NCBI GenBank assembly: GCA_016213945.1
Contig: JACQZF010000001.1
Coordinates: 5,831-69,830 of the forward strand
Source: Nitrospirota bacterium
GTDB taxonomy: Bacteria; Nitrospirota; Thermodesulfovibrionia; UBA6902
Direction: 5' to 3'
DNA: 64,000 nucleotides
In this document: positions 1,513-45,360 of the stretch, piece after piece
How the letters are laid out: each line of letters begins with the position of its first letter
Numbering within the stretch: position 1 is the first letter of the stretch
Notes under the pieces: model-generated
The model's database searches: none
Told to the model about the DNA's origin: nothing
What the model saw: only the letters and a program-made list of their open reading frames with translations
Program-made: the position numbers and the translations under genes

Positions 1513-1609
1513 CATGAAGTGACGAGTGACGCGTAATGAGTAACGCGAAAACTGAAAAAGACCATTACGTATTTTACTCGCAGCCATTCACTCGGTACTA
1601 ACTTATAAT

Positions 1610-2398: not shown

Positions 2399-2428
2399 TT
2401 TCTTTAAAACAATAAAGGATGGAAGAAA

Positions 2429-2851
2429 ATGGAAAAAATTGCTAAAAATGTTTCTGTAATGTGTTTCCATGATGAACTGTGTCAGGTTTACAATGCGCTT
2501 ATGACTGCATACAGTCTCTTGAAAGAGGGGGCCAAAGTCACAATATTTTTTGGGTCGCGCGGGGTCAACGCCCTTCATAAGGACAAGGTGAACAAGCTTG
2601 TTTGTTTGCCGGACCAGCCAAAAGAGGAAAGCGATGCCGTTATGAAAAGGATGGAGGATATGAACCTCCCTACGGCTGAAGATCTGCTTTTCATGCTCTA
2701 CAAGGAAGGAGCAAGGTTACTGGCCTGTCCCTTGAACGTCCCTCTTTTTGGCATGACTAAAAAAGATTTTGTTGATGGTGTTGAGGTAGCTGACCCCGCA
2801 ACATATTATAAGGAAGTTGTTATAAAAGCAGATATGAACCTGACGTTTTGA
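2429..2851 (+). CDS. DsrE/DsrF-like family protein (putative sulfur-carrier/sulfurtransferase)
   Basis: 140 aa with a KVTIFFGSRGVNAL segment resembling the DsrE/YchN fold family. Sits in the sulfur cluster context. RBS GGATGGAAG upstream. Confidence 0.4.
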   Translation: MEKIAKNVSVMCFHDELCQVYNALMTAYSLLKEGAKVTIFFGSRGVNALHKDKVNKLVCLPDQPKEESDAVMKRMEDMNLPTAEDLLFMLYKEGARLLACPLNVPLFGMTKKDFVDGVEVADPATYYKEVVIKADMNLTF

Positions 2852-2908
2852 TTGAGTCTGGACCGACCTTGTATTGAGGTTTTTTAAAAAAGTATATAAA
2901 ATTTCGCC

Positions 2909-3235
2909 ATGAGCAAGAAACTTTTTGAGATACATGCCGATATATGCAAGACACTGGGAAACGCCAAGAGGATAGAGATCCTCAGCGTACTTGAGAGCAA
3001 GGAGCTGAGTGTCGGCGAGATTGCCGACAGACTCGGCATATCAACTTCAAATGTCTCACAGCATCTTGCGGTCATGAAACAAAAAGGCATTCTTGTATCA
3101 AGGAGAGACAAAAACAATATTTTCTATAGGGTCTCAAATGAAAAAGTAATCACCGCATGCGGTCTGATGAGGGAAGTGCTGCTCGATAAATTTCAGGAAG
3201 GACATAAGATGGTCAGAAAGCTTGCAAAAAAGTAA
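2909..3235 (+). CDS. ArsR/SmtB family transcriptional regulator
   Basis: Winged-HTH ArsR signature: ILSVLESKELSVGEIADRLGISTSNVSQHLAVMKQKGILVSRRDKNNIFYRV. Confidence 0.8.
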   Translation: MSKKLFEIHADICKTLGNAKRIEILSVLESKELSVGEIADRLGISTSNVSQHLAVMKQKGILVSRRDKNNIFYRVSNEKVITACGLMREVLLDKFQEGHKMVRKLAKK

Positions 3236-3301
3236 TATTTTTTTATCTGGTACTTGCAGACTTTAGAATATTCTTGACTTATAATACATCAGCGCGTCGA
3301 T

Positions 3302-3360
3302 GTCACTCCCGCTTGTCGGGAGTCTTTCCGAGAAAATGATTCCGGACAAGCCGGAATGAC
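3302..3360. repeat. MITE/REP-like double-hairpin repeat, family R1, copy 1
   Basis: GTCACTCCCGCTTGTCGGGAGTC ... GATTCCGGACAAGCCGGAATGAC: two about 23-nt hairpins whose loops (CTTGT / ACAAG) are reverse complements. Related copies lie at 29453, 31777 and 61585. Confidence 0.7.
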
Positions 3361-3386
3361 AGAAAGAGAAGTGGAGGAAACAGAAA

Positions 3387-5705: not shown

Positions 5706-5732
5706 ATATAAAAAACTTTGGAGGTGAGAGGA

Positions 5733-6242
5733 ATGAAAAAAGCAATAGTTCTGATTTTAAGTATCTTCGTAATCATCACGGCTCTGCCCGCACTTGCAGA
5801 GGACGACCTGGCAAAGAAAATGTCCGGGGTGCTCATGAAAGCGCCTGAGGACGGCGGCTGGCAGGTGACTTCCGATGAAGTCTACATGTGGATTAAGACC
5901 GGAAAGACGGACTTCATGGTTTTGGATGTAAGACCTGGTGTTGATGAATACAATGCAGGGCATATCCCTTCGGCAGTGCATATGCCGTATTACACGGTCC
6001 TGAATCCGGAGAATCTGTCAAAGCTTCCGAAGGTCAAAAAGCTCGTGCTTGCGTGCGCCACAGGACAGCTTGAAAATCTTCCGGTAGTAGGCTTGAGGAT
6101 GCTGGGATACGAGGCGTATACGCTTCTCTTCGGCTATGTCTCATGGATCAAAGATTATCCCGCCGGAGATGCAATTAAAAGCATAGTAGACAAAGCGGCT
6201 GCTAAAAATTATCCAATTGAACAGACAGGAGGTATGAAATGA
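5733..6242 (+). CDS. Periplasmic rhodanese-domain sulfurtransferase
   Basis: Signal peptide MKKAIVLILSIFVIITALPALA. Rhodanese fold motifs VLDVRPGVDEYNAGHIPSAVHMP and active-site loop LACATGQ. Start moved to the ATG at 5733, which follows GGAGGTGAGAGG. Confidence 0.8.
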   Translation: MKKAIVLILSIFVIITALPALAEDDLAKKMSGVLMKAPEDGGWQVTSDEVYMWIKTGKTDFMVLDVRPGVDEYNAGHIPSAVHMPYYTVLNPENLSKLPKVKKLVLACATGQLENLPVVGLRMLGYEAYTLLFGYVSWIKDYPAGDAIKSIVDKAAAKNYPIEQTGGMK

Positions 6243-6763
6243 AAGCAAGTTTAACAACAACAGATAACTTAAAAATCCCCCTTAATCCCCCTTTTTCAAA
6301 GGGGGAGATACGTCATGTCCCCCTCTTTGGAAAAGAGGGATCAGGGGAGATTTTAAAATGGATTGCAGTTCTATTGATAACAGTCTCCTTTTTATTTCCA
6401 CTAATCTCAATTGCTGCTGCCGCAGAAAAAGGCACAGAAGAAGAATTAAAAGAACGGATAGCGATAACGAACAAGAAACGTGTCACTCCAAAGGAGATAA
6501 AAAGGTTCACAGATCAGGTCAAAGCCTATTTCTTTGAAACGGTGCCGGATGACGTTATCGAGAGCGCGATGAAAGAACTCACACCCGGAGAGGCGCTCGC
6601 GGCGATTGTCATCACAAACCTTTCCAAAAAGCCCGGCAAGGACATCATAAAAATGAAAAAAGACGGAAAAAGCTGGACCGAAATCGTCAATGCTTCCGGT
6701 TTGAAGATGAAAGACGTGGTGAAAGAGGTCAAGGAATTCCAGAAGACATCAGGCTGCGCATAA
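6239..6763 (+). CDS. Hypothetical secreted protein; 5' end uncertain (overlaps repeat R2)
   Basis: Hydrophobic signal-like segment WIAVLLITVSFLFPLISIAAAAEK followed by a charged, Lys-rich soluble domain. The first about 40 codons of the tracked ORF translate the palindromic repeat, so the true start is probably downstream. Confidence 0.35.
   Translation: MKASLTTTDNLKIPLNPPFSKGEIRHVPLFGKEGSGEILKWIAVLLITVSFLFPLISIAAAAEKGTEEELKERIAITNKKRVTPKEIKRFTDQVKAYFFETVPDDVIESAMKELTPGEALAAIVITNLSKKPGKDIIKMKKDGKSWTEIVNASGLKMKDVVKEVKEFQKTSGCA
6271..6358. repeat. G/C-rich palindromic repeat, family R2, copy A
   Basis: AAAATCCCCCTTAATCCCCCTTTTTCAAAGGGGGAG...CCCCCTCTTTGGAAAAGAGGGATCAGGGGAGATTTTAAAA. Near-identical copy at 33392..33459. 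Overlaps the 5' end of ORF 6239..6763. Confidence 0.75.
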
Positions 6764-6772
6764 GGAGGCTGC

Positions 6773-8158
6773 ATGAAAAATATTTTTACAAAACCGTGGT
6801 CGTTCGTGTGGGGCGGGTTCATGGTCGGCCTTGCACAGGTGATTTACTTTCTTAAATATGAGACACCGATACCTATTACTACGGGCCTTGCAAAGATGTT
6901 CGGCTCCATCGAGGAGAATATTACAAAGACCGACTATATTACAAGATTATATGACGCTGATATTCACTGGATCATAATCGGTATCCTGCTTGGAGCGTTC
7001 CTTGTCGCAATACTTGAGAGGGAGCACAAGGCGTGGGCGAAATATCCTCCCCGTGTTGCCCTGCTTGCATTCATAGGCGGGGCGACATTCGGACTCGGCA
7101 CAAGGCTTGCGCAGGGATGCACTACATGGCACTATTTAGGCGGCATCCCGGCCATGAGTCTTACGTCTATTGTAGTGGCTCTTGTAAGTATTCCGTTTGC
7201 ATTTCTTGCATTTATGCTGATGACAAAACTCGATGCAGGCGGATACTTAAAGCACCACGAAAAACACGCTACAGTCAAACACTGTGTTGAACTGGAATAC
7301 CCGCATGACACGCTGTGTTATGACCCCAAATATAAACCGGGCAAAGACCCTCTGAGAATAATACTGACTGCGTTCCTGTTCCTGCTGCTGGCGTCAGCCT
7401 TCTACACGGCATTTACAGGAGAGTCCACAGAGGGCATCAGCCGCTTGCCGTGGACAGAGATACTTCTCAAGACATTCATCGGTGTCCTGCTTGGCTTTGG
7501 CATCGGGAAAACCGGCTTCGGCACGGAATGCGCCGTTATGGCGCCCCACTCCCTTCACATGTCACAAAAACATTTCGATTCCATGAAGGTCGCAAAGATA
7601 ACGCAGACCATGTTTACAGGGCTCCTGCCCTTTACCGCGCTGCTTGTGGCTATACTCATGTTCAATATAACGATACTCGTTACGTGGATATTCTTCGGAT
7701 GGGACATTCCGGTTGTTGTTGAATCAGGCAGATACAAGTGGGGGTTTCATCTCGGGCATCTTGTCGGCGGGCCGCTGTTAGGCATAGGCGCGGTCCTCAT
7801 GATCGGCTGCGAGATAAGGTCCTACGCCCGGACAGCTATGGGTTATCTTACAGGGCTGGCTTCGCTTCCGGGTTTTTTCTTCGGATATCTGCCGTTCACA
7901 CTTTACAAGCCGCAGTTTGAACAGGTTTTTTTCTCCAAAGGTTTTATGGAGGCCAAGAATATCCTTGAGCTCTTACCGGAGAATCCGTATATCCAATATG
8001 GTTTTGCATGCTGTTATACCGGGGTCCTCGCAGCGCTTCTCGTGTGGGCGATCAGAAAAGGCTCTCAGATGACAAAAGTAACTCCCAAAGAGTATCTTAC
8101 AGAATCCACAGACGAGATATTCTTGAAAGGACTTAAAACTAAAAATCAGGAGGGATGA
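6773..8158 (+). CDS. YeeE/YedE-family membrane protein (putative thiosulfate/sulfur-compound transporter)
   Basis: Polytopic membrane protein with repeated Gly-rich, Cys-containing loops (GGATFGLGTRLAQGCTTWHYLGG; GGPLLGIGAVLMIGCEIRS; GKTGFGTECAV) like the YeeE/YedE repeat motifs. Neighbours are rhodanese and sulfur genes. Confidence 0.55.
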   Translation: MKNIFTKPWSFVWGGFMVGLAQVIYFLKYETPIPITTGLAKMFGSIEENITKTDYITRLYDADIHWIIIGILLGAFLVAILEREHKAWAKYPPRVALLAFIGGATFGLGTRLAQGCTTWHYLGGIPAMSLTSIVVALVSIPFAFLAFMLMTKLDAGGYLKHHEKHATVKHCVELEYPHDTLCYDPKYKPGKDPLRIILTAFLFLLLASAFYTAFTGESTEGISRLPWTEILLKTFIGVLLGFGIGKTGFGTECAVMAPHSLHMSQKHFDSMKVAKITQTMFTGLLPFTALLVAILMFNITILVTWIFFGWDIPVVVESGRYKWGFHLGHLVGGPLLGIGAVLMIGCEIRSYARTAMGYLTGLASLPGFFFGYLPFTLYKPQFEQVFFSKGFMEAKNILELLPENPYIQYGFACCYTGVLAALLVWAIRKGSQMTKVTPKEYLTESTDEIFLKGLKTKNQEG

Positions 8159-8997
8159 TACAGATGAAAGAATTCAAGATTCAAAATTTAATATTCAAAA
8201 TTATGGTTGTCTTTCCCATTTGCTCTATGCTCTTTGCCCTTTGCTTACCTCTTTCTGCAGACGCCCTTACCGCTGAAGAAGTCGTCAAAAAATCCCAGGA
8301 GGCGTTCTTCTACCAGGGAAAGGACTTCAAAGCGCGGGTAATGATGAAGCTTATAAGCAAAAGCGGACAGGAGAGAGTTCGTGAACTCACCATGCTGAGA
8401 AAAAATTACGGCGCATCCGGCGGCGAGCAGAAGTATTTCATGTATTTCTATCAGCCTGCCGACGTGAAGGACATGACGTTCATGGTTTATAAATATCCGG
8501 CGAAGGACGATGACAGATGGCTATTTGTGCCTGCGATCAATATGGTGCGCAGGATTGCCGCGCAGGACAAAAGCTCAAGCTTTGTAGGATCTGATTTCAC
8601 ATACGAGGACGTTTCCGGCAGGGATATAGAAGACGATACCCATGAAATTGTAAAGGAAGAAAAACTCGGCGCAAATGATTGCTTCGTAATAAAGAGCGCT
8701 CCAAAGAAAGCTGATGTTGATTACAGCTATAAGCTTTCATGGATTGACAAGGGCAATTTCCTGCCTTTGAAAGATGAGTACTATGACAAAAAAGGCGGGC
8801 TCTACAGGGTATTCAGCGGTGAGGAAATCAAAGACGTGAAAGGTTTTCCTACTGTAACAAAGAGGACCATGAAAAACCTCTCGAGCGGCCACAGGACTGA
8901 GGTAACATATGTTAAAGCAGATTACAACATCAACATAGAGGATAATCTTTTCAGCGAACGCTTTCTCAAACAGCCGCCGAGAAAGTGGATAGAGTGA
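8155..8997 (+). CDS. Outer-membrane lipoprotein-sorting (LolA-like / DUF1329-type) periplasmic protein
   Basis: Signal peptide, about 280 aa. Its composition resembles LolA-fold partners of MMPL/RND exporters. Translationally coupled (ATGA overlap) to the upstream gene. Confidence 0.55.
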   Translation: MIQMKEFKIQNLIFKIMVVFPICSMLFALCLPLSADALTAEEVVKKSQEAFFYQGKDFKARVMMKLISKSGQERVRELTMLRKNYGASGGEQKYFMYFYQPADVKDMTFMVYKYPAKDDDRWLFVPAINMVRRIAAQDKSSSFVGSDFTYEDVSGRDIEDDTHEIVKEEKLGANDCFVIKSAPKKADVDYSYKLSWIDKGNFLPLKDEYYDKKGGLYRVFSGEEIKDVKGFPTVTKRTMKNLSSGHRTEVTYVKADYNINIEDNLFSERFLKQPPRKWIE

Positions 8998-9644
8998 GAT
9001 CTGTTGTTGAAGCCTTTGACCATCTTGCAGAAGATTATGACAAATGGTTCGATGCCCCCGAAGGGAAAATACTTTTTGATGCAGAGATCGAGGCAGTAAA
9101 GCTTCTTATGAAAGATATTTCGAAGCCATTCATTGAGATCGGGGTAGGAACAGGGAGATTTGCAAAGGCATTGGGAATTGAGTTTGGCATTGACCCTTCT
9201 CAAGAGGTTTTGAAAATAGCAGAAAAGCGCGGGATAAAGGTGAAGATGGCAACGGGCGAGAAACTGCCTTTTGAAGATGAATCCTTCGGCGGCGTATTTA
9301 TACTTTTTACGCTGTGTTTTGTGGAAAACCCTCAAAAGGTGATTTCCGAGGCCAAAAGAGTCTTAAAGAAAGCTGGAGGACTGATTGTTGGGATAATTAA
9401 TAGAGAAAGCCAGTGGGGTAAATTCTATCAGAGAAAAAAGAACGACGGACATCCTATTTATAAACATGCAATGTTTTATAGCGTCAGTGAGGTTAAAGAA
9501 ATAATAGAAAAGGCAGGCTTGAGTGTTGAGGCGTATTCATCAACATTATGTCAGCCACCATCGGAAAAGCCTGTGAAAGAGATTGTAAATAATAAATTGG
9601 TACATGATGCAGGTTTTATTTGTATCCGGGCAAAAAAACTTTAA
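8985..9644 (+). CDS. Class I SAM-dependent methyltransferase
   Basis: Motif I IEIGVGTGRFAKALG; acidic loop FEDESFGGVFI. GTG start overlapping the upstream stop. Confidence 0.7.
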   Translation: MDRVRSVVEAFDHLAEDYDKWFDAPEGKILFDAEIEAVKLLMKDISKPFIEIGVGTGRFAKALGIEFGIDPSQEVLKIAEKRGIKVKMATGEKLPFEDESFGGVFILFTLCFVENPQKVISEAKRVLKKAGGLIVGIINRESQWGKFYQRKKNDGHPIYKHAMFYSVSEVKEIIEKAGLSVEAYSSTLCQPPSEKPVKEIVNNKLVHDAGFICIRAKKL

Positions 9645-16509: not shown

Positions 16510-16677
16510 CTACACTCTGTCACATGAACGGTTAGTCAATTTTTCCCAGGCGCCGGCGTCCATTTCATTTATATATTCTTCTATCGAAAAGTTTTTGCCG
16601 CATTCCATGCAGCGCAGTTGAACGGACTTTCAGCCTACTTTCAAATTGAGTTTGCCGTTACATTCTTTACATTTCAT
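16510..16677 (-). pseudogene. Small zinc-ribbon ORF (two CxxC pairs) interrupted by an in-frame TGA
   Basis: Minus-strand translation: MKCKECNGKLNLKVG-TGA-KSVQLRCMECGKNFSIEEYINEMDAGAWEKLTNRSCDRV*. Not in the ORF track because it is split by the stop at 16630..16632. Confidence 0.3.
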
Positions 16678-17072
16678 ATCTCTTCCACCTTTGAGATTTA
16701 TTTGCCTAATAAAATCGTTCTTAATAAATAATAATATAATTATTCTATAAAAGTGAAGTTGTTTTAAAAGTTGTTTTTCCTGTTAAATGGAAAACAGCTT
16801 GTTCTTAATACGGTTTCTTTCTGAACACATTGTAACCTTATGCTTGATTTTTCTTCTAACCATCTGTTAAAAAAGATAACATCTATATTATATTTTTTAC
16901 ATGATAGTATTCCAATTTTCCTTAATATTATTCAGATTGCTAATAACTTTATAAAAGAGAGATACCTATTGGTTGCAAAAGAACATCTCCTTAGCAAATT
17001 AAACTTGGCGCTAATTAATTATCTTTTTTGCCTCCAGGATTCTTATCTTCGTATATTGTTGCTATCAGAGAG

Positions 17073-17819
17073 ATGCCAATGAAAGACAATACGGTCCTTA
17101 TTAGCGGCGCAACAAGAGGTATAGGCAGGGCCATTGCAGTTGAATTGGCAGGTGAAGGCGCTAATATCAGTTTTAATTACTTAAAGAGCGGCAGAGAGGC
17201 TGCTGAACTGGAAAATGAAATAAAAAACCTGGGCGCCAACGCTAAGTCATTTCAGGCTGATATAAAAGATTTTCAAGCGGTGAGGTCATGGGTTGATAAA
17301 ACAAAGGAGCTGTTCGGCAGGATCGACATCGTGATTAACAATGCCGGTGTGATCAAAGACAAAGCGCTTGCCCTTATGGAATCTGATGATTGGCGGGAAG
17401 TGATCAATACTAATCTGGAAGGGACTTTCAACCTTACACGGGCCGCGATCGTAACACTGATGAAACAGAAAAGCGGCGTTGTTATTAATATCACTTCAGT
17501 AAGCGGTATTGTAGGTCTGCCACGGCAAACCAATTACTCCGCATCCAAAGCCGGGATAATCGGATTTACAAAATCTCTTGCAAAAGAGGTCGCCCCTTAC
17601 AATATCAGGGTCAACGCGATTGCTCCGGGTTTCATCGAAACAGATATGCTTAAAGTTCTCACAGAGGAATACAAGAATCAAATATTAAAACAAATACCTT
17701 TAAACAGATTGGGCAGGCCCCGGGAAGTGGCAAAGATGGTAAAATTCTTAGTAAGCGATGACGCCGGCTATATAACAGGCCAGACAATAGCCATTGACGG
17801 CGGAATGAGCATGATGTAA
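17073..17819 (+). CDS. fabG: 3-oxoacyl-ACP reductase (SDR family)
   Basis: ISGATRGIGRAIA cofactor motif, NNAG, catalytic YxxxK region (YSASKAG). Start moved to the internal ATG (MPMKDNT...). Confidence 0.8.
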   Translation: MPMKDNTVLISGATRGIGRAIAVELAGEGANISFNYLKSGREAAELENEIKNLGANAKSFQADIKDFQAVRSWVDKTKELFGRIDIVINNAGVIKDKALALMESDDWREVINTNLEGTFNLTRAAIVTLMKQKSGVVINITSVSGIVGLPRQTNYSASKAGIIGFTKSLAKEVAPYNIRVNAIAPGFIETDMLKVLTEEYKNQILKQIPLNRLGRPREVAKMVKFLVSDDAGYITGQTIAIDGGMSMM

Positions 17820-17823
17820 GGAA

Positions 17824-19056
17824 ATGCAAAAAAGACGGATCGTGATAACGGGTTTAGGTGTGATCGCCCCAAACGGCATCGGCAAAGAAGATTTCTGGTC
17901 GGCTTTAAAAGAAGGCCGTTCAGGTATCAGGCCTATCAGCAGATTTGATACCGGAGGGTTCAAGTGTAAACTGGGCGGAGAGATTAACAATTTCAAACCC
18001 GCCTATTTCTTAGGATACAAGGGATTAAAAAATCTTGACAGGACTTCAAGGCTGTTATGCTCCGCCGCAAAATTGGCAATGGACGACTCAGGATTAAAAA
18101 TCAACTATGACAACACGGATGATTTCGGAGTCTGCACCGGGACTACCCTGTCTGCGCTATGGAATATCGCTCAATTCGGCAAAGAATTGATAGAAGACGG
18201 TCCGCTTTTTACCAATGCCTCCCTGTTTCCTGCAATGGTAATAAATGCCGCTTCAAGCCAGGTTTCAATCAAGTTCAATATCCAAGGCTTTAATACAACT
18301 ATTTCAACAGGCTACAGTTCAAGCATAGATGCATTGAAATACGCTATAGATTTTATCAGAATGGGGAGAATAAAGGCCGTCCTTGTAGGTGCGGTGGAGA
18401 GTCTTTCCCTTGCAAATTTTCTTGGATTTTACCGTCTGGGTTTTTTTGCAGGTATAAACGGCGCAGAAATATCCTGCCCTTTCGACAAACGGAGAAATGG
18501 AGTTGTTTTGGGTGAAGGAGCCGCAGTCATAGTAGTGGAAGATGAGGAATATGCTAAAGAAAGAAAGGCAAATATCTATGCAGAAGTTAAGGATATCGGC
18601 TATTGCTTTGACTCCTATAAGATAGGCAGATATGAACCTGGGGCAAAGGGATTACAAGAAAGCATGAAAAAGGCTCTCAGCAATTCCGCTCTAAATATCA
18701 CTGACATTGACTATATAGGAGCATCGGCAAATTCCGTACCTGAGCAGGACAAACTGGAGACAATAGCAATAAAGGACGTTTTCGGCAGATATGCTTATAA
18801 CATTCCGGTGAGTTCTATCAAGTCAATGATAGGAGAGACTTTCAGTGCAGGCGGCCTTTTTCAGATCGCTGCTTCCATCGGCAGCATGTCCCGTGGCTTT
18901 ATACCGCCTACGATCAACTATGAGATGAGGGATGATGAATGCGACCTTGATTATGTGGCCGGAGCTTCGCGTATTACAAGGATTAATAATGTATTGATCA
19001 ACAATTTTGGACCAGGTGGCAATAGTGCATCGTTGGTTTTATCCAAGTATCACTGA
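17824..19056 (+). CDS. Ketosynthase-like protein lacking the catalytic Cys/His/His (chain-length-factor / KS-beta-like)
   Basis: Thiolase-fold KAS N-terminus (RIVITGLGVIAPNGIG). The position aligned with the active-site T-A-C reads TGY (NTTISTGYSSS). The HGTGT and GHxxGAAG His motifs are replaced by GASANS and GETFSAGG. Confidence 0.65.
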   Translation: MQKRRIVITGLGVIAPNGIGKEDFWSALKEGRSGIRPISRFDTGGFKCKLGGEINNFKPAYFLGYKGLKNLDRTSRLLCSAAKLAMDDSGLKINYDNTDDFGVCTGTTLSALWNIAQFGKELIEDGPLFTNASLFPAMVINAASSQVSIKFNIQGFNTTISTGYSSSIDALKYAIDFIRMGRIKAVLVGAVESLSLANFLGFYRLGFFAGINGAEISCPFDKRRNGVVLGEGAAVIVVEDEEYAKERKANIYAEVKDIGYCFDSYKIGRYEPGAKGLQESMKKALSNSALNITDIDYIGASANSVPEQDKLETIAIKDVFGRYAYNIPVSSIKSMIGETFSAGGLFQIAASIGSMSRGFIPPTINYEMRDDECDLDYVAGASRITRINNVLINNFGPGGNSASLVLSKYH

Positions 19057-19078
19057 AAAGGAGATTTAAGACCGGATT

Positions 19079-19318
19079 ATGACAAACAATAATTTATTAG
19101 AAGAAGAAATAAGACAGCTTGTTTCAAATGTAACTGAAGTCCCTTTTGAAAAACTTACTCTCGACGCGGATTTTTTCAAAGACCTGAACATCGATTCCTT
19201 AAAGGCGATCGAAATTGTGGCGGCTTTTGAAAAAAAGTATAGAATCATTATTCCTGAACAGGACATACCAAAGATCAGAAATCTCAGAAAGATAATTGAA
19301 TATAAGACATCCCGTTAA
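19079..19318 (+). CDS. Acyl carrier protein
   Basis: 79 aa, acidic, phosphopantetheine-attachment DSL motif (DLNIDSLKAIEIV). Confidence 0.7.
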   Translation: MTNNNLLEEEIRQLVSNVTEVPFEKLTLDADFFKDLNIDSLKAIEIVAAFEKKYRIIIPEQDIPKIRNLRKIIEYKTSR

Positions 19319-19329
19319 ATGAACACTGC

Positions 19330-19773
19330 ATGAATTGGGACAAGAAAAAGATAAAATCTGTTTTGCCTCACAGGGAGCCTTTCCTTTTTATTGATGAGGT
19401 AATAGAGACAATTGGCACCGAAAAAGTAGTTGCAGTAAAAAACGTTAAAAGTGATGAAAAATATTTTAAGGGGCACTTCCCGGGCAATCCCGTAATGCCG
19501 GGGGTTCTATTGATTGAAGCAATGGCGCAAGCTTCAATTATTCTATATTCAATCGCCAAACCGGAAATAGCTAAACTTCACCCTGATTATTACCTTGGTA
19601 AAACAAAAGCGGAATTCTTATCGCCGGTATATCCTGGAGACAAACTTATTATAGAGGCAAACTGCATAAAAATTATAGATGAAGCCGGAATTGTCGATAC
19701 CTCAGCACGGGTTAATGACAGGATCGTCGCTAAAGCAAACCTTATATTCAGCGTTCAAAAAAAGAATGAATAG
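19330..19773 (+). CDS. FabZ/FabA-like hot-dog fold beta-hydroxyacyl-ACP dehydratase
   Basis: HFPGNPVMPGVLLIEAMAQA motif typical of FabZ. Confidence 0.75.
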   Translation: MNWDKKKIKSVLPHREPFLFIDEVIETIGTEKVVAVKNVKSDEKYFKGHFPGNPVMPGVLLIEAMAQASIILYSIAKPEIAKLHPDYYLGKTKAEFLSPVYPGDKLIIEANCIKIIDEAGIVDTSARVNDRIVAKANLIFSVQKKNE

Positions 19774-20977
19774 AAGAAGAGTTGTCGTGACAGGACTGGG
19801 TGTGATTTCATCGGTAGGAACCGGCAAAGAAGAATTTTGGAGAGCGATGGTAAGCGGTAAGTCGGGTATAAGCAAAGTCGCTTCTTTCGATACATCTGAA
19901 TTCAGGTGTCATTACGGAGGCGAAATAAGGAATTTCAATCCGGAGGATTTTATTCCCAAGAGAAGAGTGAAATTTTTTGGACGGACCTCACAGTTGGCGA
20001 TAGCCGCTGCCTCCATGGCGTTAAAAGACGCTAAATTATCTGCAAAAGACCTCAATCAAAAAAGGACCGGCGTTATTATCGGAACAACAATGGGTGAAAA
20101 ACCTTTGGAGGAATCTGTTGATGAGTGGGTCATGAAGGGCGCAGATAAAGTAAGCAAGATAAAAATATTACAGTCTTCCGCTAATAATATTCCCGCCAAT
20201 ATTTCAATTTACTTGAAAATACAGGGTCCCAATTACCTTATTCCTACAGCATGTGCAGCCGGTAACTACGCTATTGGTTATGGATTTGATTTAATAAGAA
20301 AAGGAGATTTGGATTGCATAATCGTAGGAGGGGCGGATGCGTTTTCAAAACTTGCATTTGGTGGCTTTCAAAGGATATACGCAATGGCGCCGGAGAAATG
20401 TCAGCCTTTTGATAAGAACAGAAGGGGCATGCTGGTTGGCGAAGGCGCCGGGATACTTTTCCTTGAAACGATGGAGTCTGCGCTCAATAGAGACGCGGCC
20501 ATCTATGCCGAGATCGCGGGTTACGGGCTTAGTTGTGATGCTTACCATATGACAGCCTCAGATTCCGATGGAATTGAGAAAGTTATGTTGAAAGCGCTCA
20601 AAGATGCGGAATTGCAAAAAGAAGAAGTTGATTACATCTGTGCTCATGGAACCGGGACTCAGGGGAATGATAAGAATGAATGTGCAGCGATCAAGAAGGT
20701 CTTTAAAGAGCATTATAAAACGATTCCAGTCAATTCAATCAAATCTATGCTCGGTCATCCGATGGGAGCTGCTTCAGCGATCGAAGCTGTTTCATGCTGT
20801 CTTACAGTTAAGGAGAATATTATTCCTCCGACTATAAATTATGAAACAGTTGATATAAATTGCGATATAGACTGTGTTCCCAATAAAGCAAGAGTAAAGA
20901 GGGTGAATATAGCTTTGAATAACGGGTTTGCATTTGGAGGGAATAATTCTTGTTTGGTGATTAGGAAGTTTCATTGA
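19766..20977 (+). CDS. Beta-ketoacyl-ACP synthase (catalytically intact KS)
   Basis: Active-site Cys in TACAAGNYAIGYG, His in CAHGTGTQ, second His in SMLGHPMGAAS. Start moved to MNRRRVVVTGLGV at 19766, which overlaps the FabZ stop. Confidence 0.8.
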   Translation: MNRRRVVVTGLGVISSVGTGKEEFWRAMVSGKSGISKVASFDTSEFRCHYGGEIRNFNPEDFIPKRRVKFFGRTSQLAIAAASMALKDAKLSAKDLNQKRTGVIIGTTMGEKPLEESVDEWVMKGADKVSKIKILQSSANNIPANISIYLKIQGPNYLIPTACAAGNYAIGYGFDLIRKGDLDCIIVGGADAFSKLAFGGFQRIYAMAPEKCQPFDKNRRGMLVGEGAGILFLETMESALNRDAAIYAEIAGYGLSCDAYHMTASDSDGIEKVMLKALKDAELQKEEVDYICAHGTGTQGNDKNECAAIKKVFKEHYKTIPVNSIKSMLGHPMGAASAIEAVSCCLTVKENIIPPTINYETVDINCDIDCVPNKARVKRVNIALNNGFAFGGNNSCLVIRKFH

Positions 20978-20987
20978 TAATTAAAAT

Positions 20988-22283
20988 ATGATACAAAAAC
21001 GAAGAGTAGCTATCACGGGAATTGGTCCTCTTGCTTCGACAGGAGCAGGCAAAGATGCCTTTTGGGAAGGCATCATAAGCAAAAAACTCGGCCTGACATT
21101 AGAAGAAATTCATATTGATGGAGAATTATGGGACAAATTTTATTTTCATAAGATGGCAGATTTTGATGTTTCGATGTGCGGGGTCGATAAGGATATAATT
21201 GAGGACATCCGGATATGGAAAAACGGAGATGAGGATAAAGACCTTCTCTATTTGCTGGCTGCTATTGGATTGGCTTTAGATGATAGTAATATTGCTTACG
21301 ATAAAGAGTATAACAATATAGGGTTGTTCTTAACATCCGAGCATCCTGGTTTTGAACCTTTCTGTGAATCAATAATAAAAGAAGCCATAGCATTTCTTGA
21401 GAATAATAAATCTTCCAAACATACAATATTCAGACAGGTGTTCGAGCGTTTCTCAAAAAAGGGCTACGATCTTCAGGGTTTCATGTACCTTTTTTTTGCA
21501 GCTAAAGCATTTGGAATCCACGGGTACTCCCTTTATACAAACAATGCATGCGCATCCGGCTTATATGCGCTTGAATCCGCAGCAAGACAAATTAGATATG
21601 GTGAGAGTGATATTGCTATCCTTGCCGGAGGGGATGTATCCAATACCATGTTTAAGCACCTATGGTTTAAAGAACAAGGGCTTTATGCAGAGGATGGAAG
21701 AATAAAGCCTTTTTCTAAAAATGCCGATGGCATAGTTCTCGGAGACGGGGCTGCTGCGCTGGTGCTGGAAGATATGGAGCACGCTTTAGACAGGAATGCC
21801 CATATATATGCGGAATATCTTGGAGGAGGGTTCTCTCTTGAAGGATGGAAGGTGACAGTGCCTATGATGGGAAGTTTGTCATATCAAAATGCCATAAACA
21901 GCTCATTAAAGCAAGCTGCTATAGGCACTGAAGATATTGATTTGATAGTCCCTCATGGAGTGGCGCTTAAAGTTACCGATGGATATGAAGCAAAAGCAAT
22001 GACGGATATTTTTGGCAAGAATTGTCAAAGACCGCTTGTTACAGCATTGAAGCCATTTGTCGGCCATAATCTTGGCGGCAGCGCAATTATAGAAAGCATT
22101 ATTCTTTTATTGTCGATGGAAAAAAACACGATACTTCCAACATTGAACTGTAATGAATTTGAAGAAAAATATCAGTTTAACTTGGTGAATGAACTGACAA
22201 CATCCCCCCTAAATACAGCGATGAAACTGTCCTGCGGTTTTGCAGGATACAATGCAGCGGCGATATTCAAAAAGGTAGTCTGA
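20988..22283 (+). CDS. Divergent beta-ketoacyl-ACP synthase (third KS paralog, catalytic residues present)
   Basis: Cys in NNACASGLYALE, His in VPHGVAL, His in FVGHNLGGSA. N-terminal VAITGIGPLA thiolase motif. Confidence 0.65.
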   Translation: MIQKRRVAITGIGPLASTGAGKDAFWEGIISKKLGLTLEEIHIDGELWDKFYFHKMADFDVSMCGVDKDIIEDIRIWKNGDEDKDLLYLLAAIGLALDDSNIAYDKEYNNIGLFLTSEHPGFEPFCESIIKEAIAFLENNKSSKHTIFRQVFERFSKKGYDLQGFMYLFFAAKAFGIHGYSLYTNNACASGLYALESAARQIRYGESDIAILAGGDVSNTMFKHLWFKEQGLYAEDGRIKPFSKNADGIVLGDGAAALVLEDMEHALDRNAHIYAEYLGGGFSLEGWKVTVPMMGSLSYQNAINSSLKQAAIGTEDIDLIVPHGVALKVTDGYEAKAMTDIFGKNCQRPLVTALKPFVGHNLGGSAIIESIILLLSMEKNTILPTLNCNEFEEKYQFNLVNELTTSPLNTAMKLSCGFAGYNAAAIFKKVV

Positions 22284-22505: not shown

Positions 22506-24617
22506 ATGAACATAGCAAATTTGTTTTCAATTAGCGGATTTTTATTAGGTCTGACAGGCACTGTATTAACAATTGTCATTTTCAGGCTCAGAAAATCCAA
22601 ATTGCATTATCTGTGGATGTTGTTTAATATCGCCGTAGCTCTTTGGGGTTGGGGTGCTTTTTTTATAGGGAGGACGTCTAATGGGCCCGATGCATTAGTA
22701 CTGTGGAGAATCAGTTATGTTCCAATATTATTTATTAGTGTATTTTTCTTTCATACTGTATATGAATTTTGCAACCTTTCGTCGAGTAAGCTATTAATCT
22801 TCGCTTATGCTCAAGGGATACTATCCAGCATCTTGAGTATTTTTACCGATCTATCTATTTCAAATACATATTTAATATATGACAATCTCCATTATGCTTA
22901 TGTTAAGAGTTTTTGGGGTAAGCTTTCATTTGTTATATGGATGGGACTTGTAGCTTATGGAATTTATCAACTATTCAGGAACTACGTTGAATACAAGGGA
23001 CACAAAAAGCTTCAAACTTTATATTTTCTTGTAGCTATTATAGTAGGATTCTCAAGCGGTTTAACAAATTTCATCCCGTACTTCGGCATTAAAATTTATC
23101 CGATAGGGAATATAGGTATTGTTATCTACTGTATCATCGTTTCTTATGCCATTTTCCGTTATCGACTTATGGATATAAGCCTTGTCTTTAAGAAAAGCAT
23201 GGCTTACTCGCTTTCCGCCGGGCTTTTAATGGCTCTTTTTGTCGTTCTTGTTATAACGATAACAAATCTTTTCTCTGCTTTCACAAATGTGAGTTCATTT
23301 AAGATCAGCATCTTTGCCTCCATTGTAATAGCCCTGCTCTTTAATCCTCTCAGAAACAGGATCCAGAAACTGATTGATAAAATGTTCTACAAAAAGTCTT
23401 ATGATTATTTTGCCACTGTGCGGAAAGTCAGTCATGAGCTTGCCTCCACATTTGAATGCGGAAAAATATACGATTTTGTCGGAGGCACGATTTATTCCAC
23501 ATTAGGAATAAAAAACATTTCCATCATGGCTGCCATGCATGGCGGGGCCTATGATATTGTTTATCATTCATCACTCAAAAAGGACAAGACCAGAAAAAAA
23601 CCCGACCTTGAAAAAGAGGAAGAAATAAAAATAAACAAATATCCCGGGCTCGCTAAATTTTTCAGGACATCGGACGACGTCCTGATAAGGGAAGAGTTGC
23701 CGGCATTTGAAAAAAAACACGGGCTGGACGTGATAGAGCGTGTTAATAAAGACCTCGACATACTGCACGGCGACGCCGCAGTCCCGGTATTTGTTGATCA
23801 CAAGCTGGCGCTCCTGGTAATACTCGGGACGAAACTGTCCGGCGATATGTTTACCAATGAAGATATAGACTTATTAAAGACGATCTCTAACCAGACTGCA
23901 ATTGCGCTTAAGAATGCCAGGCTTTATCAGGACAAGGTCAACTCCGCGAGGCTCGCGTCCATAGGCATGATGTCAGCGACCTTTGCACATGAAATACGCA
24001 ACCCTCTAACGTCGCTGAAGACCTTTGCGCAGTTAATGCCGGAGAAATATAACGATACCGAGTTCAGGGACACCTTCTCGAAAATTGTTGTCGGGGAGAT
24101 TGAAAAGATAGACGGGCTTATCAGCGACCTGCTTGATTTTTCATCCAGGAAAAAATCCACCCGCATGAATAACTTCGATCTCGCGGAGCTTGTAGATGAG
24201 GTGGTTGAATACGTAAAGGGCAAACTTGATTTTGAAAAGTCAAAGATTGTTGTTGAAAAGAATTTTAACGGGAATGCGATCAGTATGTCGGGAGACGCCG
24301 TAAAGCTGAAGCAGGCTTTCGGCAACATAATATTAAACGGCTGCCAGGCCATGCACGGCGAAGGGGTCCTCCGGGTTGATATAAAAAACAGCAGCAGGTT
24401 TGTTGACGTAACTGTCGAAGACACGGGAGAAGGCATTCATCCCGAAGACCTCCCAAAGATATTCGACCCTTTTGTAACAACAAAGGAGATGGGAGTCGGC
24501 CTGGGGCTTGCGATCAGTAAAAGGATTGTGGAAGATCATAACGGTAAAATACATGTCAGAAGCCAGTTGGCAAAAGGCACCGCCTTTACTATTTCCCTGC
24601 CTGTACAGAATGAGTAA
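22506..24617 (+). CDS. Sensor histidine kinase with N-terminal multi-TM (7TM-type) sensor
   Basis: About 300 aa polytopic membrane N-terminus. Central GAF-like region. HisKA H-box FAHEIRNPLTSL. HATPase_c N/G boxes (ILNGCQAM; TGEGIHPEDLPKIFDPF; GVGLGLAI). Confidence 0.8.
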   Translation: MNIANLFSISGFLLGLTGTVLTIVIFRLRKSKLHYLWMLFNIAVALWGWGAFFIGRTSNGPDALVLWRISYVPILFISVFFFHTVYEFCNLSSSKLLIFAYAQGILSSILSIFTDLSISNTYLIYDNLHYAYVKSFWGKLSFVIWMGLVAYGIYQLFRNYVEYKGHKKLQTLYFLVAIIVGFSSGLTNFIPYFGIKIYPIGNIGIVIYCIIVSYAIFRYRLMDISLVFKKSMAYSLSAGLLMALFVVLVITITNLFSAFTNVSSFKISIFASIVIALLFNPLRNRIQKLIDKMFYKKSYDYFATVRKVSHELASTFECGKIYDFVGGTIYSTLGIKNISIMAAMHGGAYDIVYHSSLKKDKTRKKPDLEKEEEIKINKYPGLAKFFRTSDDVLIREELPAFEKKHGLDVIERVNKDLDILHGDAAVPVFVDHKLALLVILGTKLSGDMFTNEDIDLLKTISNQTAIALKNARLYQDKVNSARLASIGMMSATFAHEIRNPLTSLKTFAQLMPEKYNDTEFRDTFSKIVVGEIEKIDGLISDLLDFSSRKKSTRMNNFDLAELVDEVVEYVKGKLDFEKSKIVVEKNFNGNAISMSGDAVKLKQAFGNIILNGCQAMHGEGVLRVDIKNSSRFVDVTVEDTGEGIHPEDLPKIFDPFVTTKEMGVGLGLAISKRIVEDHNGKIHVRSQLAKGTAFTISLPVQNE

Positions 24618-24780: not shown

Positions 24781-26835
24781 TTGAAAGGGCAACAGGTGGA
24801 ACTTTTAGCTTTATTAAGCGGTAGAGACGCTTTTGTTATACCTCATGTTAAGAACGCTTTAAAACAGTACACCGTTTATCCCCTGAAGACTGTGGAAGAG
24901 CTTGAGGATTTATACGGCAATATACCGCTCAATCTGCTTCTTATTGACACGGTATCTCACAAGCTGTCTGCCCTTGGGGAATTCTTAGGTAAACTGGATA
25001 GTGACAGGGTAGTGCTTATCGCACATGAAAAACTTGATAAATACACAAAGGAACAGCTTCCGCGAAGTGTATTTGACTCCATTGATGACGGTTCAATAAA
25101 AACCGAGCTTCCCGCGATAGTTGAACGGGCACTGGAAAGACAGAGATTCAGGAACGAATTGGGTTTATTAAAACAATCCAGGGACATAGTCTCTCCAGCG
25201 CATATGCAGATCTATAATAAGCATGAGTCTGAGGTGTTTTCAGGCCGTTATGATCCTGTCCCGAGCGGGAGATATGTCCACGAAAAAGTCATTGTCAATT
25301 TCGCCAAGATGCTGACGGCAAGCTTTGACATGCGAAAGCTCTTTAACCACTTTATTGATTCTGTCATGGAAATCGCCCGGGTAAGCAAGATGTCCATTAT
25401 GCTCAAAGACAAAGATGTCTTTCATGTCAAAACTCATTACGGGCTGGACCCTTATTTAGCCGACAACCTGCAGCTCAGGAAGGACAGCGCGCTCGCGTCC
25501 TGGCTTGCAAAGACAGGGCGTATAATGAGCAAGCCGGTCAATTTTTTCGATACGGAGTCGGTCAGTATCAAAAGCGACATGGAAATCCTGCAGTGCTCCG
25601 TTTCTTTTCCCATGATCCACAAAGGGAAATTAATAGGGATTTTCAATATTGACAATAAAATTACCGAGGAGCCTTTTTACAGGGAAGAACTGGAAATAAT
25701 TTATGTGCTCTGCAATTATCTCGCAGCCGCAATCAAAGACATCGACCTTTATCACCACATGTGGTATCAGAAGGAATTCACCAATAATATAATATCAAGC
25801 ATGAGCAGCGGCATGATCGCAATTGATAAAGACGAGAAGATAACCGTTTTCAATCAACAGGCCGCCGATATCCTGAGCCTGCATCCTTCGGACATGATAG
25901 CCAGGGACCTGAGGGCGCTGCCGTCGCCGCTTGGAGATATCCTGTATGAAACCTTGTCGGGAGGGAAGTCGTACAGGCGTTATGAGGCAGTTATCAATCC
26001 CGCAAGAATCCCCGTCGGAATAAACAGTTACAGGCTCATCGATGAACAGCAAAATCCCGTAGGGGCCGGAATTGTATTCTCCGATCTTTCCGATTCCAAG
26101 AAATTAGAGGAGCAGAAAAGCAGGGCTGATAAGCTCAAGGCGGTCAATGACCTGATTGCAAAAATAGCCCATGAGGTGAGAAATCCCCTGACCTCAATAC
26201 AAACCTACACTCAACTGCTCAACGAAAAGCATGAAGATGACGAGTTGCATAACTTTTATATCTCTTCCGTAAGTCAGTCAATCAACCGGCTGGATAAATT
26301 AATTGATAAACTCATAACCTTCTCAAGCACGCAGGATTACAACCTGAAAAAGGAAGACATAAACGACCTAATAAATGACGCTGCGGACTTTATTTCCAGG
26401 AATTTGCCGCAAACCCATAAACTCTCGAAGAACCTGACCGATAAAGCTTTTTACATAAATGCCGATAAGAGACAAGCAGTAAAGGCAATTTATTATCTTG
26501 TGCAAAGTATTATTGACAGGACGCCGGACGGAGCGCTAATCATGATTAATGCCCGCATAATAATGCAGGATTCTTTCTCCGCAGAAATAACGATAATGTA
26601 TGAAGGGGACAAGCTCGTCGAAGAAGAGCAAAACCTGTCAAAACCTCTGTTTGACATTGACAATCTCGATACAGAGCTGAATGTTCCTATAAGCCGCAAA
26701 ATCATTGAAGGCCACGCCGGAAGCCTGGATATAAAGAGCAAGGAAGGGATAAATACCTTTATTATTTCTTTGCCGGTTCTCGACAGGAGGGGCTCTGCAG
26801 TTTCATTTAAAGGAGGTTACGTTAATGAACAATAG
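24781..26835 (+). CDS. Sensor histidine kinase with GAF and PAS domains (cytoplasmic)
   Basis: H-box AHEVRNPLTSIQTY. C-terminal ATPase region ending ...GHAGSLDIKSKEGINTFIISLPV. GAF- and PAS-like middle domains. TTG start used by the track, so the 5' end is uncertain. Confidence 0.7.
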   Translation: MKGQQVELLALLSGRDAFVIPHVKNALKQYTVYPLKTVEELEDLYGNIPLNLLLIDTVSHKLSALGEFLGKLDSDRVVLIAHEKLDKYTKEQLPRSVFDSIDDGSIKTELPAIVERALERQRFRNELGLLKQSRDIVSPAHMQIYNKHESEVFSGRYDPVPSGRYVHEKVIVNFAKMLTASFDMRKLFNHFIDSVMEIARVSKMSIMLKDKDVFHVKTHYGLDPYLADNLQLRKDSALASWLAKTGRIMSKPVNFFDTESVSIKSDMEILQCSVSFPMIHKGKLIGIFNIDNKITEEPFYREELEIIYVLCNYLAAAIKDIDLYHHMWYQKEFTNNIISSMSSGMIAIDKDEKITVFNQQAADILSLHPSDMIARDLRALPSPLGDILYETLSGGKSYRRYEAVINPARIPVGINSYRLIDEQQNPVGAGIVFSDLSDSKKLEEQKSRADKLKAVNDLIAKIAHEVRNPLTSIQTYTQLLNEKHEDDELHNFYISSVSQSINRLDKLIDKLITFSSTQDYNLKKEDINDLINDAADFISRNLPQTHKLSKNLTDKAFYINADKRQAVKAIYYLVQSIIDRTPDGALIMINARIIMQDSFSAEITIMYEGDKLVEEEQNLSKPLFDIDNLDTELNVPISRKIIEGHAGSLDIKSKEGINTFIISLPVLDRRGSAVSFKGGYVNEQ

Positions 26836-27847
26836 CGAAAGAATACTTGTCATTGACGACGAACTCGCACCGAGGGAGTCGATACGAATGGTGCTTAAGG
26901 ACAAGTATGCGGTATCCACTGCCTCGGGAGCGCTTGAGGGATTAAGCATGATGTCGGAAAATTCCGTAGACCTCGTTGTGATGGACATAAAGATGCCGAA
27001 GATGGACGGCATAACCGCATTGCAGGAGATAAAGAAAAAGCATCCGGATACCGAGGTGATCCTTCTGACGGCGTATGCAAGTCTTGAAACGGCAAGGGAT
27101 GCCATACGCTTTGGCGCCTTTGACTACCTGTTAAAGCCATTTGACAAGGATGACATCCTGATGGTAGTAGAGAAAGGGCTGACTAAAAGGCGTTCAAGCA
27201 CGGGATTGAAAATGGAACGGGACATATTGCTTGACAGGGCTTCATATCTTGAAAAGCAGATAAGCGAAGCAAGGACCAATATCATGATGTGCTATGAAGG
27301 CACTGTCAATGCTTTGATCCTTACAATAGACGCCAAAGACCACTACACTTATAATCACTCAAACCGCGTCGCTAAACTGTCTTCTGCAATGGCTGAAGTG
27401 TTAGGGTCGCCCGAGAAGACAATAAAAGAAATAGAACATGCCGCCTGCATCCACGACATCGGCAAGATCGGCATTGACGAAAACATCCTCAAGAAAAACG
27501 GCCGGCTGACAAGTGACGAATATATGGAAATGAAAAAACATCCGGCCATAGGAGTCAGGATTGTGCAATCAGTGCCTTTTCTTGAAGATGCAATCCCGGT
27601 CATTCAGTATCATCATGAGCGATATGACGGCAAAGGATATCCTGAGGGAATAAAGGGAGATAAGATACCGCTGGCTGCGAGGATAGTTAATGTTGCCGAT
27701 GCTATTGACGCAATGATGTGCGCAAGACCCTACAGGGCCGCTCTCACGGTGGACAATGTGATGAGTGAGTTGACGAATAACGCGGGGACCCAGTTTGATC
27801 CCGCGATAGTTGAAATCATATTAAACGGCAGGGTCACGCTTTTTTAG
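26825..27847 (+). CDS. Response regulator, receiver + HD-GYP domain (c-di-GMP phosphodiesterase type)
   Basis: REC: LVIDDE...DLVVMDIKMPKMDG...LLKPF. HD-GYP: HSNRVAKL, IHDIGKIGI, HHERYDGKGYPEG. Confidence 0.8.
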   Translation: MNNSERILVIDDELAPRESIRMVLKDKYAVSTASGALEGLSMMSENSVDLVVMDIKMPKMDGITALQEIKKKHPDTEVILLTAYASLETARDAIRFGAFDYLLKPFDKDDILMVVEKGLTKRRSSTGLKMERDILLDRASYLEKQISEARTNIMMCYEGTVNALILTIDAKDHYTYNHSNRVAKLSSAMAEVLGSPEKTIKEIEHAACIHDIGKIGIDENILKKNGRLTSDEYMEMKKHPAIGVRIVQSVPFLEDAIPVIQYHHERYDGKGYPEGIKGDKIPLAARIVNVADAIDAMMCARPYRAALTVDNVMSELTNNAGTQFDPAIVEIILNGRVTLF

Positions 27848-43989: not shown

Positions 43990-44223
43990 CAGGATTATAT
44001 TCATTCCTCATTATTAATTTTATTTGTCAAAGCCATTATGTCTCCTCTACCTGCCACGCAAAAAATGGAGTAGTTCCGCGAAGTTTTACGTCATTTTTCT
44101 CTGCTTATAGATTCATCAAATATCATGACGGCAGACATATCCCAAGAGATGTTCTATGTGGCTGTTTTACTGCCGTTTAATGTAAAATCTTTCAGAGATA
44201 TTCTCTAATAGAGGACGGGGTTA

Positions 44224-44450: not shown

Positions 44451-44539
44451 AGTATAGAAACAAACATGCTCAATTTCCCATTTTTTATGACTGGGGTATA
44501 ATAATAAAATAAATTATAGCTATTTCAAGGAGGTAAAAA

Positions 44540-45017: not shown

Positions 45018-45073
45018 AATATCGCCTATTTGGGGCTTTGATATAATGATATGAAAATCAATGGGGTTGAACA

Positions 45074-45343: not shown

Positions 45344-45360
45344 AAGTATGGAGGGATTTA

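Follow-up and report, generated by a model that had tools for sequence, protein, structure and literature searches.

The question raised by this locus is what a compact set of six fatty-acid-synthase-like genes, one of them encoding a ketosynthase (KS) without its catalytic residues, does in a Nitrospirota bacterium known from a groundwater metagenome-assembled genome (MAG) and not an anammox organism. The genes occupy positions 17073-22283 of a stretch of 64,000 nucleotides (contig JACQZF010000001.1 of assembly GCA_016213945.1, positions 5,831 to 69,830; here called the window). A preliminary description, made from the letters of the sequence, had proposed a type II cluster of the fatty acid synthase (FAS) or polyketide synthase (PKS) kind, with a dead KS resembling a chain-length factor (CLF), and had left the product class open. 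Our analysis indicates that the cassette is most likely a specialised membrane-lipid module of the KS/CLF type: we give a probability of about 0.62 to its being an accessory type II FAS-like lipid module of that kind and a non-anammox relative of the core of Cluster I, the anammox gene cluster whose enzymes are thought to start ladderane lipid synthesis (bioRxiv 10.64898/2026.05.19.726425).

Families were called with Pfam and NCBIfam profiles and their cut-offs, and matches to solved structures with HMMER against PDB sequences. The upstream region and the six open reading frames (ORFs), all on the plus strand, are as follows:

16690..17072, plus strand: upstream region, AT-rich, presumed promoter from its composition
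17073..17819 (alternative start 17079), plus strand: FabG-type 3-oxoacyl-acyl carrier protein reductase, a ketoreductase (KR), from TIGR01830 and Pfam adh_short_C2
17824..19056, plus strand: KS1, FabF-fold protein without a catalytic triad, with both ketoacyl-synthase Pfam domains, from the triad alignment
19079..19318, plus strand: acyl carrier protein (ACP) with the serine of a DSL motif, from PP-binding (9e-12)
19330..19773, plus strand: FabZ-type 3-hydroxyacyl-ACP dehydratase (DH), from NF000582
19766..20977, plus strand: KS2, intact Cys-His-His ketosynthase, from Pfam/NCBIfam and the PDB match 9s5h_B
20988..22283, plus strand: KS3, divergent intact ketosynthase, from Pfam/NCBIfam and the Cys-His-Lys-His alignment

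The preliminary description proved correct wherever it was checked. The genes are as tightly packed as had been described and match their families strongly: the intergenic gaps in cassette order are 4, 22, 11, -8 and 10 nt, the ATG of KS2 (19766) overlapping the stop codon of FabZ by 8 nt, and the KS1 and KS2 genes stand 710 nt apart in one operon. The AT-rich region noted upstream has a G+C content of 26%, against 44% for the whole window; it is shared with the divergent rplM-rpsI operon, and it contains promoter-like hexamers at 16867-16894 and 17028-17057 (consensus matches only). An Rfam scan of the whole window returned one tRNA and no family in 16690-17072 or near the cassette. FabG shows its Ser/Tyr/Lys motif in translation, and FabZ keeps its catalytic residues (the His of GHFP and the Glu of LIEAMAQ). 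Genes for an enoyl reductase, a thioesterase, an acyltransferase, a phytoene-desaturase-like (PDH-like) flavoprotein and a fatty-acyl reductase are all absent from the cassette of the window.

The loss of catalytic residues in KS1 is confirmed. With the KS proteins aligned to KS2 as reference (C163/H294/K326/H331), KS1 has Tyr/Ser/Lys/Glu in the triad columns, that is, Cys replaced by Tyr, one His by Ser and the other by Glu, with the Lys kept; HMMER alignments to PDB chains give the same substitutions, which dispels the concern, voiced in the preliminary description, that the apparent loss was a misalignment. KS2 and KS3, both intact, keep Cys-His-Lys-His; KS3 is about 28% identical to KS2 and reads HGVALKV at the position of the FabF motif HGTGT. 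A homologue search spanning 1.84 billion cluster representatives yielded a large FabF-like set with the pattern x-x-Asn-x-Lys-Glu at the positions of Cys, His298, Thr300, Thr302, Lys and His333, in which Phe or Tyr is commonest at the Cys position and to which KS1 (Tyr-Ser-Asn-Val-Lys-Glu) conforms; the dead Kuenenia paralogues of Rattray et al. carry the same Lys and Glu (PMC2649909). Across more than 100 homologues of the Nitrospirota type KS1 is 72-88% identical, and toward one related locus (L003) it is 82% identical where KS2 is 83% identical; conservation equal to that of the active enzyme fits an indispensable partner.

The same search supplied natural fusions of about 800 residues in which an intact KS domain is followed by a dead one, which is independent evidence for a functional pairing of the two subunit types; in the fusions P0153 and P0154 the intact domain falls inside the clade of KS2 and its anammox counterpart amxFabF2 (see below). 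Such single-chain proteins are common in metagenomes (P0153, 825 aa; P0154, 744 aa; P0121; P0122; about 50 others). Genes of the KS1 and KS2 types adjoin each other in 19 of the roughly 20 loci for which flanking sequence is available.

The closest characterised relatives of this pair are anammox proteins. Structure 9S5H is the heterodimer of amxFabF2 and amxFabFmut from Brocadia fulgida; each protein is inactive alone, and together they decarboxylate malonyl-amxACP and form acetoacetyl-ACP (bioRxiv 10.64898/2026.05.19.726425). The best PDB match of KS1 is amxFabFmut (9s5h_C, 354 bits; best ordinary FabF, 266 bits) and that of KS2 is amxFabF2 (9s5h_B, 476 bits), followed by the ishigamide ketosynthase Iga11 (351 bits) and Bacillus subtilis FabF (333 bits); the five best matches of FabZ are all anammox amxFabZ (7qv0_A, 116 bits), and the best match of the ACP is Kuenenia amxACP (7qv0_D). 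The description of KS1 as CLF-like is thereby upheld, amxFabFmut being a CLF-like partner shown by experiment (bioRxiv 10.64898/2026.05.19.726425). In a neighbour-joining tree of 199 KS domains (capped distances, 100 bootstraps), KS2, amxFabF2 and all partner KS of the related loci form one clade in 97 of 100 bootstraps. The tunnel residues named in the preprint are kept in KS2 (Glu, Ala, Phe, Met and the gate Phe) except Ala110, a position occupied by Met in almost all non-anammox members; in KS1 the equivalents of Phe135 and Val139, dead-subunit residues that influence which chain lengths are preferred (bioRxiv 10.64898/2026.05.19.726425), are kept. Net-charge counts over the helix-loop-helix and partner-helix segments miss the reported electrostatic asymmetry of amxFabFhet even for the Brocadia proteins and are thus uninformative here.

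The cassette thus resembles Cluster I (kuste3603-3608; PDB 9S5H, 9S5I, 7QV0 and 7AUF) in that an active FabF-like KS adjoins a triad-less paralogue sharing the Lys and the His-to-Glu change, that a dedicated ACP and a FabZ belong to the same operon, that four of the six proteins find their best solved-structure matches there, and that a PDH-like flavoprotein adjoins the cassette in many relatives. It differs in its host, a Nitrospirota bacterium instead of an anammox planctomycete; in having its own FabG, KS3 and a linked two-component system; in gene order; in the residue at the Cys position (Tyr in KS1, Val or Thr in anammox); and in the degree of identity to the Brocadia proteins (45% between KS1 and amxFabFmut, 55% between KS2 and amxFabF2).

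Since the nearest characterised homologues are Cluster I proteins, and since tools of the antiSMASH type label such clusters "ladderane" (PMC9902471), it might be supposed that the Nitrospirota bacterium itself makes ladderane lipids. This is scarcely credible: identity to the Brocadia proteins reaches just 45-55%, ladderanes are known from anammox Planctomycetota only, and the B12-dependent radical-SAM and PDH-like genes of Cluster I are both missing from the 64-kb window, where tblastn with three PDH-like proteins from relatives found no match. Nor is the B12 radical-SAM family a regular neighbour in related loci. The Pfam families of 101 ORFs from the flanks of 17 such loci included 12 response regulators, nine amine-oxidase/PDH-like proteins, seven HisKA_7TM proteins, five HD-GYP proteins and five nitroreductases; the B12 radical-SAM family was not among the common families, and the only two radical-SAM matches in these flanks were a small ORF in L042 and a PqqD-linked SPASM enzyme in L076. 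True ladderane synthesis without a radical-SAM gene is very unlikely.

KS/dead-KS pairs also occur in polyketide pathways. The cassette shares with Iga11/Iga12 and with ApeO/ApeC plus ApeR a KS with an inactive partner, a discrete ACP, a KR, a DH and the lack of an enoyl reductase, and its stand-alone KS3 is comparable to the extra aryl-polyene ketosynthase ApeR. A highly reducing type II PKS making a polyene, of the aryl-polyene or ishigamide-like sort, in which KS/CLF, KR and DH would iterate without enoyl reduction, could account for these features and for the rank of Iga11 as second-best structural relative of KS2; precomputed Pfam matches of the dehydratase include ApeP-like and ApeI-like families, and the window encodes an MMPL transporter and a LolA-like protein 8-14 kb upstream of the cassette. 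We nevertheless regard a polyene PKS as quite improbable. Scanned directly, the dehydratase scores 91 bits with the FabA/FabZ family and 18.6 bits with the ApeI-like family (cut-off 28.5), and a single FabZ-type enzyme stands where aryl-polyene clusters have an ApeI/ApeP pair. KS1 resembles the FabF-derived amxFabFmut and not the CLFs of PKS: it scores 197 and 156 bits with the two actinorhodin chains of 1TQY, the lower value being that of the CLF, and Iga12 is absent among the PDB matches listed for it. No adenylating enzyme, thioesterase, second dehydratase, glycosyltransferase or acyltransferase is found at the locus, and, unlike in the Iga and Ape systems, no adenylation enzyme, thioesterase, acyltransferase, glycosyltransferase or exporter stands in conserved synteny with the cassette. 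The upstream genes (3387-5705, MMPL/RND-type transporter; 8155-8997, LolA-like lipoprotein-sorting protein; 8985-9644, S-adenosylmethionine methyltransferase) resemble the lipid-export accessories of aryl-polyene clusters; none of them keeps synteny with the cassette in relatives, and the idea that the MMPL and LolA-like genes form an aryl-polyene-style export module was rejected on that ground.

Aromatic type II PKS are more distant still. With the actinorhodin KS-alpha/CLF complex (PDB 1TQY) the cassette would share the heterodimer principle and decarboxylative priming by the complex, the latter as we infer it for the cassette; it lacks the hallmark Gln of the actinorhodin CLF at the Cys position, which is Tyr in KS1, and the KS1 scores given above are much lower than those with the anammox protein. 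A domain scan of the flanks found no cyclase, aromatase, ammonia-lyase or glycosyltransferase in or adjoining the cassette, as had been reported from the sequence. Membership of the cispentacin group (AmcF, AmcE, AmcB) was also considered and rejected, the models matching under their cut-offs.

The remaining alternative is that the cassette is the housekeeping elongation system, the Thermodesulfovibrionia-type Nitrospirota having exchanged the FabF homodimer for a KS/dead-KS heterodimer with KS3. Family scores lend this some substance: FabG exceeds the FabG equivalog cut-off (TIGR01830, 312.5 bits against 297.75; Pfam adh_short_C2, 8e-69), FabZ exceeds that of one FabZ equivalog (NF000582, 139 bits against 113), and KS2 lies above the KAS II subfamily cut-off, though below that of the FabF equivalog (451 bits against 494). 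So do the setting and the conservation of the genes. The cassette sits among ordinary chromosomal genes (rplM-rpsI and argC-argJ upstream on the opposite strand; dapB, dapF, lysA, tilS and gltX downstream), with rplM-rpsI, argCJ and dapB in conserved synteny; KS1 is very strongly conserved; and the 64-kb window holds no plsX, fabH, fabD or other fab gene elsewhere. Like a canonical FAS II operon (plsX-fabH-fabD-fabG-acpP-fabF), the cassette provides FabG, ACP, FabZ and FabF-like enzymes of the same chemistry, two of which reach equivalog cut-offs; unlike it, the cassette has no plsX, fabH or fabD and adds a dead and a third KS. Its ACP is not AcpP-like, falling under both AcpP cut-offs (54 bits against 70) and being near-neutral (isoelectric point 5.4, net charge -1; canonical AcpP, 4.05 and -14), which agrees with the earlier proposal that it is a dedicated carrier.

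The housekeeping explanation is made unlikely by genomes in which both systems can be seen. In an Omnitrophota contig of 304 kb (L080, JAZDMX010000003.1) the cassette sits between recG and rsmD, beside a complete canonical fab operon, in the order recG, then dead KS, FabG, ACP, FabZ, KS, hydrolase and PDH-like gene, then rsmD-coaD-yceD-rpmF-plsX-fabH-fabD-fabG-acpP-fabF; in a related genome (L081) recG is directly followed by rsmD and the canonical operon, and the cassette is absent. In Omnitrophota, therefore, the cassette is an extra system and not the housekeeping synthase, in keeping with the preliminary description, which had set the cluster apart from housekeeping fatty-acid synthesis. 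The proteins of the window are nearer to the accessory copies in L080 (FabG 57%, ACP 45% and KS2 58% identity) than to the canonical copies (47%, 33% and 41%), and by this orthology the cassette is likely accessory in Nitrospirota as well. Furthermore, the genes that accompany the cassette (fatty-acyl reductase, PDH-like, nitroreductase, methyltransferase) vary by genome, as in specialised pathways, and anammox bacteria retain canonical FAS alongside Cluster I (PMC2649909). The presence of the cassette varies between Omnitrophota genomes, and it is probably mobile or easily lost. In Omnitrophota loci, several upstream ORFs were suspected of being plsX or fabH and were not; the real plsX-fabH-fabD genes lie downstream in L014 and L018.

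In its wider distribution the cassette extends over Nitrospirota, Omnitrophota and Planctomycetia, and a seven-transmembrane (7TM) sensor kinase gene almost always adjoins it. Deposited proteins identical to KS1 and KS3 belong to a Nitrospirae MAG, and the closest species-level genome is a Thermodesulfovibrionia MAG, with KS1 82% identical. In Nitrospirota the order is fabG-KS1-ACP-fabZ-KS2, an optional PDH-like gene, KS3, the 7TM histidine kinase, a GAF-PAS kinase and an HD-GYP response regulator, and relatives hold the cassette beside the same rplM/argCJ genes; in one relative a fatty-acyl reductase replaces KS3, and methyltransferase and nitroreductase genes are present in another. Omnitrophota and uncultured Planctomycetia have the five core genes at 45-60% identity, often adding a fatty-acyl reductase, PDH-like flavoproteins, a nitroreductase-family protein and the 7TM kinase. 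KS3 is a separate conserved family by its sequence relationships: homologues 50-74% identical, often annotated as hypothetical, occur in Nitrospirota and Omnitrophota, and in every context examined (L074, L075, L077, L078, L079 and L011) the gene follows KS2 directly or after a PDH-like gene. The flanking-gene check that had been suggested revealed lipid-related neighbours in the relatives, namely fatty-acyl reductase, PDH-like flavoproteins, a PlsC-type acyltransferase, monogalactosyldiacylglycerol (MGDG) synthase and a lipid A acyltransferase. Homologues of the PDH-like, fatty-acyl reductase, nitroreductase, GMC and methyltransferase genes of relatives are missing from the window, which thus carries a minimal version of the cassette.

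Immediately downstream of KS3 the window encodes the linked signalling system:

22506..24617, plus strand: sensor histidine kinase with an N-terminal 7TM domain (HisKA_7TM), from Pfam
24781..26835, plus strand: second sensor protein, GAF-PAS-HisKA, from Pfam; HATPase_c not detected
26825..27847, plus strand: response regulator with an HD-GYP-type (HD_5) output domain, from Pfam; it begins before the preceding gene ends

The 7TM kinase gene adjoins the cassette in L003, L004, L006, L010, L013, L042, L070 and L074-L079, and in L074 and L075 it overlaps the stop codon of KS3. In the Nitrospirota loci L003, L074 and L075 the GAF-PAS-HisKA protein is kept after the 7TM kinase and the HD-GYP response regulator is kept as well, the latter also occurring in split form in L078. 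The second sensor of the window may be a degenerate kinase, or it may rely on the 7TM kinase next to it. The constancy of the 7TM kinase, together with the lipid-related neighbours in relatives, points to a membrane-lipid product under environmental control.

From these observations we propose that active KS2 and dead KS1 form an obligate heterodimer, a prediction to which the fused KS-dead-KS proteins and the conserved adjacency of the two genes lend indirect support. Working on the dedicated ACP, the heterodimer would decarboxylate malonyl-ACP to make its own primer and carry out the first condensations, KS1 shaping the acyl tunnel and so limiting chain length; in each round FabG would reduce the beta-keto intermediate and FabZ would dehydrate it. 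KS3 may perform a further condensation stage, either elongation past the limit of the heterodimer or a special joining step. Enoyl reduction might be supplied in trans by the housekeeping enoyl reductase, giving saturated chains, or double bonds might be retained. The product would be an unusual acyl chain for a membrane lipid, and its synthesis would be controlled by the co-located 7TM sensor kinase and HD-GYP response-regulator system.

Several points weigh against this interpretation. The complete 1.43-Mb Omnitrophota chromosome CP070780.1 (L007) has no KS2-type gene within 10 kb of its dead KS. The margins over ordinary homologues are small for the ACP (52 bits against 47) and for FabZ (116 against 97). 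The phylogenetic placement of the KS proteins recommended in the preliminary description succeeded for KS2 and did not settle the branch order of the dead KS, whose backbone in the neighbour-joining tree has bootstrap values of about 0; the presumed orthology of KS1 and amxFabFmut rests on similarity scores and on the phylogeny of the partner. The biochemistry of this KS/dead-KS family comes from anammox members only, the comparison with canonical operons covers Omnitrophota, and the source genome was examined over 64 kb. In the window a gap of 222 nt with promoter-like matches precedes the 7TM kinase, so that co-transcription with the cassette is not assured; a terminator scan found none between KS3 and the kinase, with no excess over shuffled sequence. 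Finally, gene content leaves product release and product class open. The L007 chromosome, the sole exception to KS1-KS2 adjacency, holds with its dead KS a FabG, an ACP and a gene at the usual position of the fatty-acyl reductase.

Other features of the window were noted in passing. Between rplM and fabG, on the minus strand, lies a 55-codon ORF (16514-16678) encoding a zinc-ribbon-like protein (CxxC...CxxC) with an in-frame TGA at codon 16 (16631-16633). In two other Nitrospirota species (L074:8697-8861 and L075:5997-6161; 73-96% amino-acid identity) both this TGA and the coding sequence before and after it are conserved, which suggests that the TGA is recoded, as selenocysteine or otherwise, in a small protein that has escaped annotation; 20 nt downstream of the TGA stands a hairpin with possible compensatory changes, though without significant stability (RNA fold z = -0.34). 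A sulfur-related run at 301-8158 encodes a Pyr_redox_2 flavoprotein, a TauE/SafE exporter, a DsrE-like protein, a rhodanese and a Sulf_transp protein. A region of low G+C content (43393-54014, 38-42%) encodes a PIN_5 nuclease, an SNF2-family helicase (1029 aa), a sacsin/HATPase-like protein (1040 aa) and a NERD-UvrD helicase and looks like a defence or mobile island, with a tRNA gene at 56120-56203. A catalase (39194-40705) and a multihaem cytochrome with an MtrC/MtrF-like domain (57143-58033) are also encoded.

Ladderane biosynthesis is a long-standing open question, and the cassette bears on it. "Ladderane" clusters called by antiSMASH in non-anammox phyla, including Omnitrophota, have already been reported and left unexplained (PMC9902471), and the existence of look-alikes is thus not new. 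What is new is that the cassette is tied specifically to the amxFabF heterodimer of known structure, together with the third KS family (KS3), the conserved linkage to a 7TM kinase, the accessory status demonstrated beside a canonical fab operon, and the consistent absence of a B12 radical-SAM gene; relative to the preliminary description, the additions are the identification of anammox Cluster I, the ladderane side of which it had named only among sequences for comparison, as the source of the nearest characterised relatives, the Nitrospirota host, and the extension of the unit into the 7TM-kinase system. Cluster I has been considered unique to ladderane producers and the first case of a chain-length factor in a fatty-acid pathway (bioRxiv 10.64898/2026.05.19.726425). 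Its core, comprising the KS/dead-KS pair, the ACP, FabZ and often a PDH-like flavoprotein, occurs in non-anammox phyla and is therefore not unique to ladderane producers. The finding separates the genes that are probably specific to ladderanes from the rest, provides many more sequences and hosts for finding out what the shared core makes, and suggests that abundant uncultured groundwater lineages have a lipid pathway that is uncharacterised and seems to be regulated. A bolder and distinctly tentative extension is that the cassette represents a widespread, previously unrecognised second lipid pathway in Nitrospirota, Omnitrophota and non-anammox Planctomycetota, making an acyl or alkyl chain of its own kind (medium-chain, unsaturated or a precursor of ether lipids, for example) that a membrane-sensing 7TM kinase would control, and that anammox bacteria arrived at ladderane synthesis when a B12 radical-SAM enzyme was added to this evolutionary platform. 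If this were true, the ladderane-specific chemistry would narrow to that one enzyme, and non-anammox organisms could be used to establish what the shared core does.

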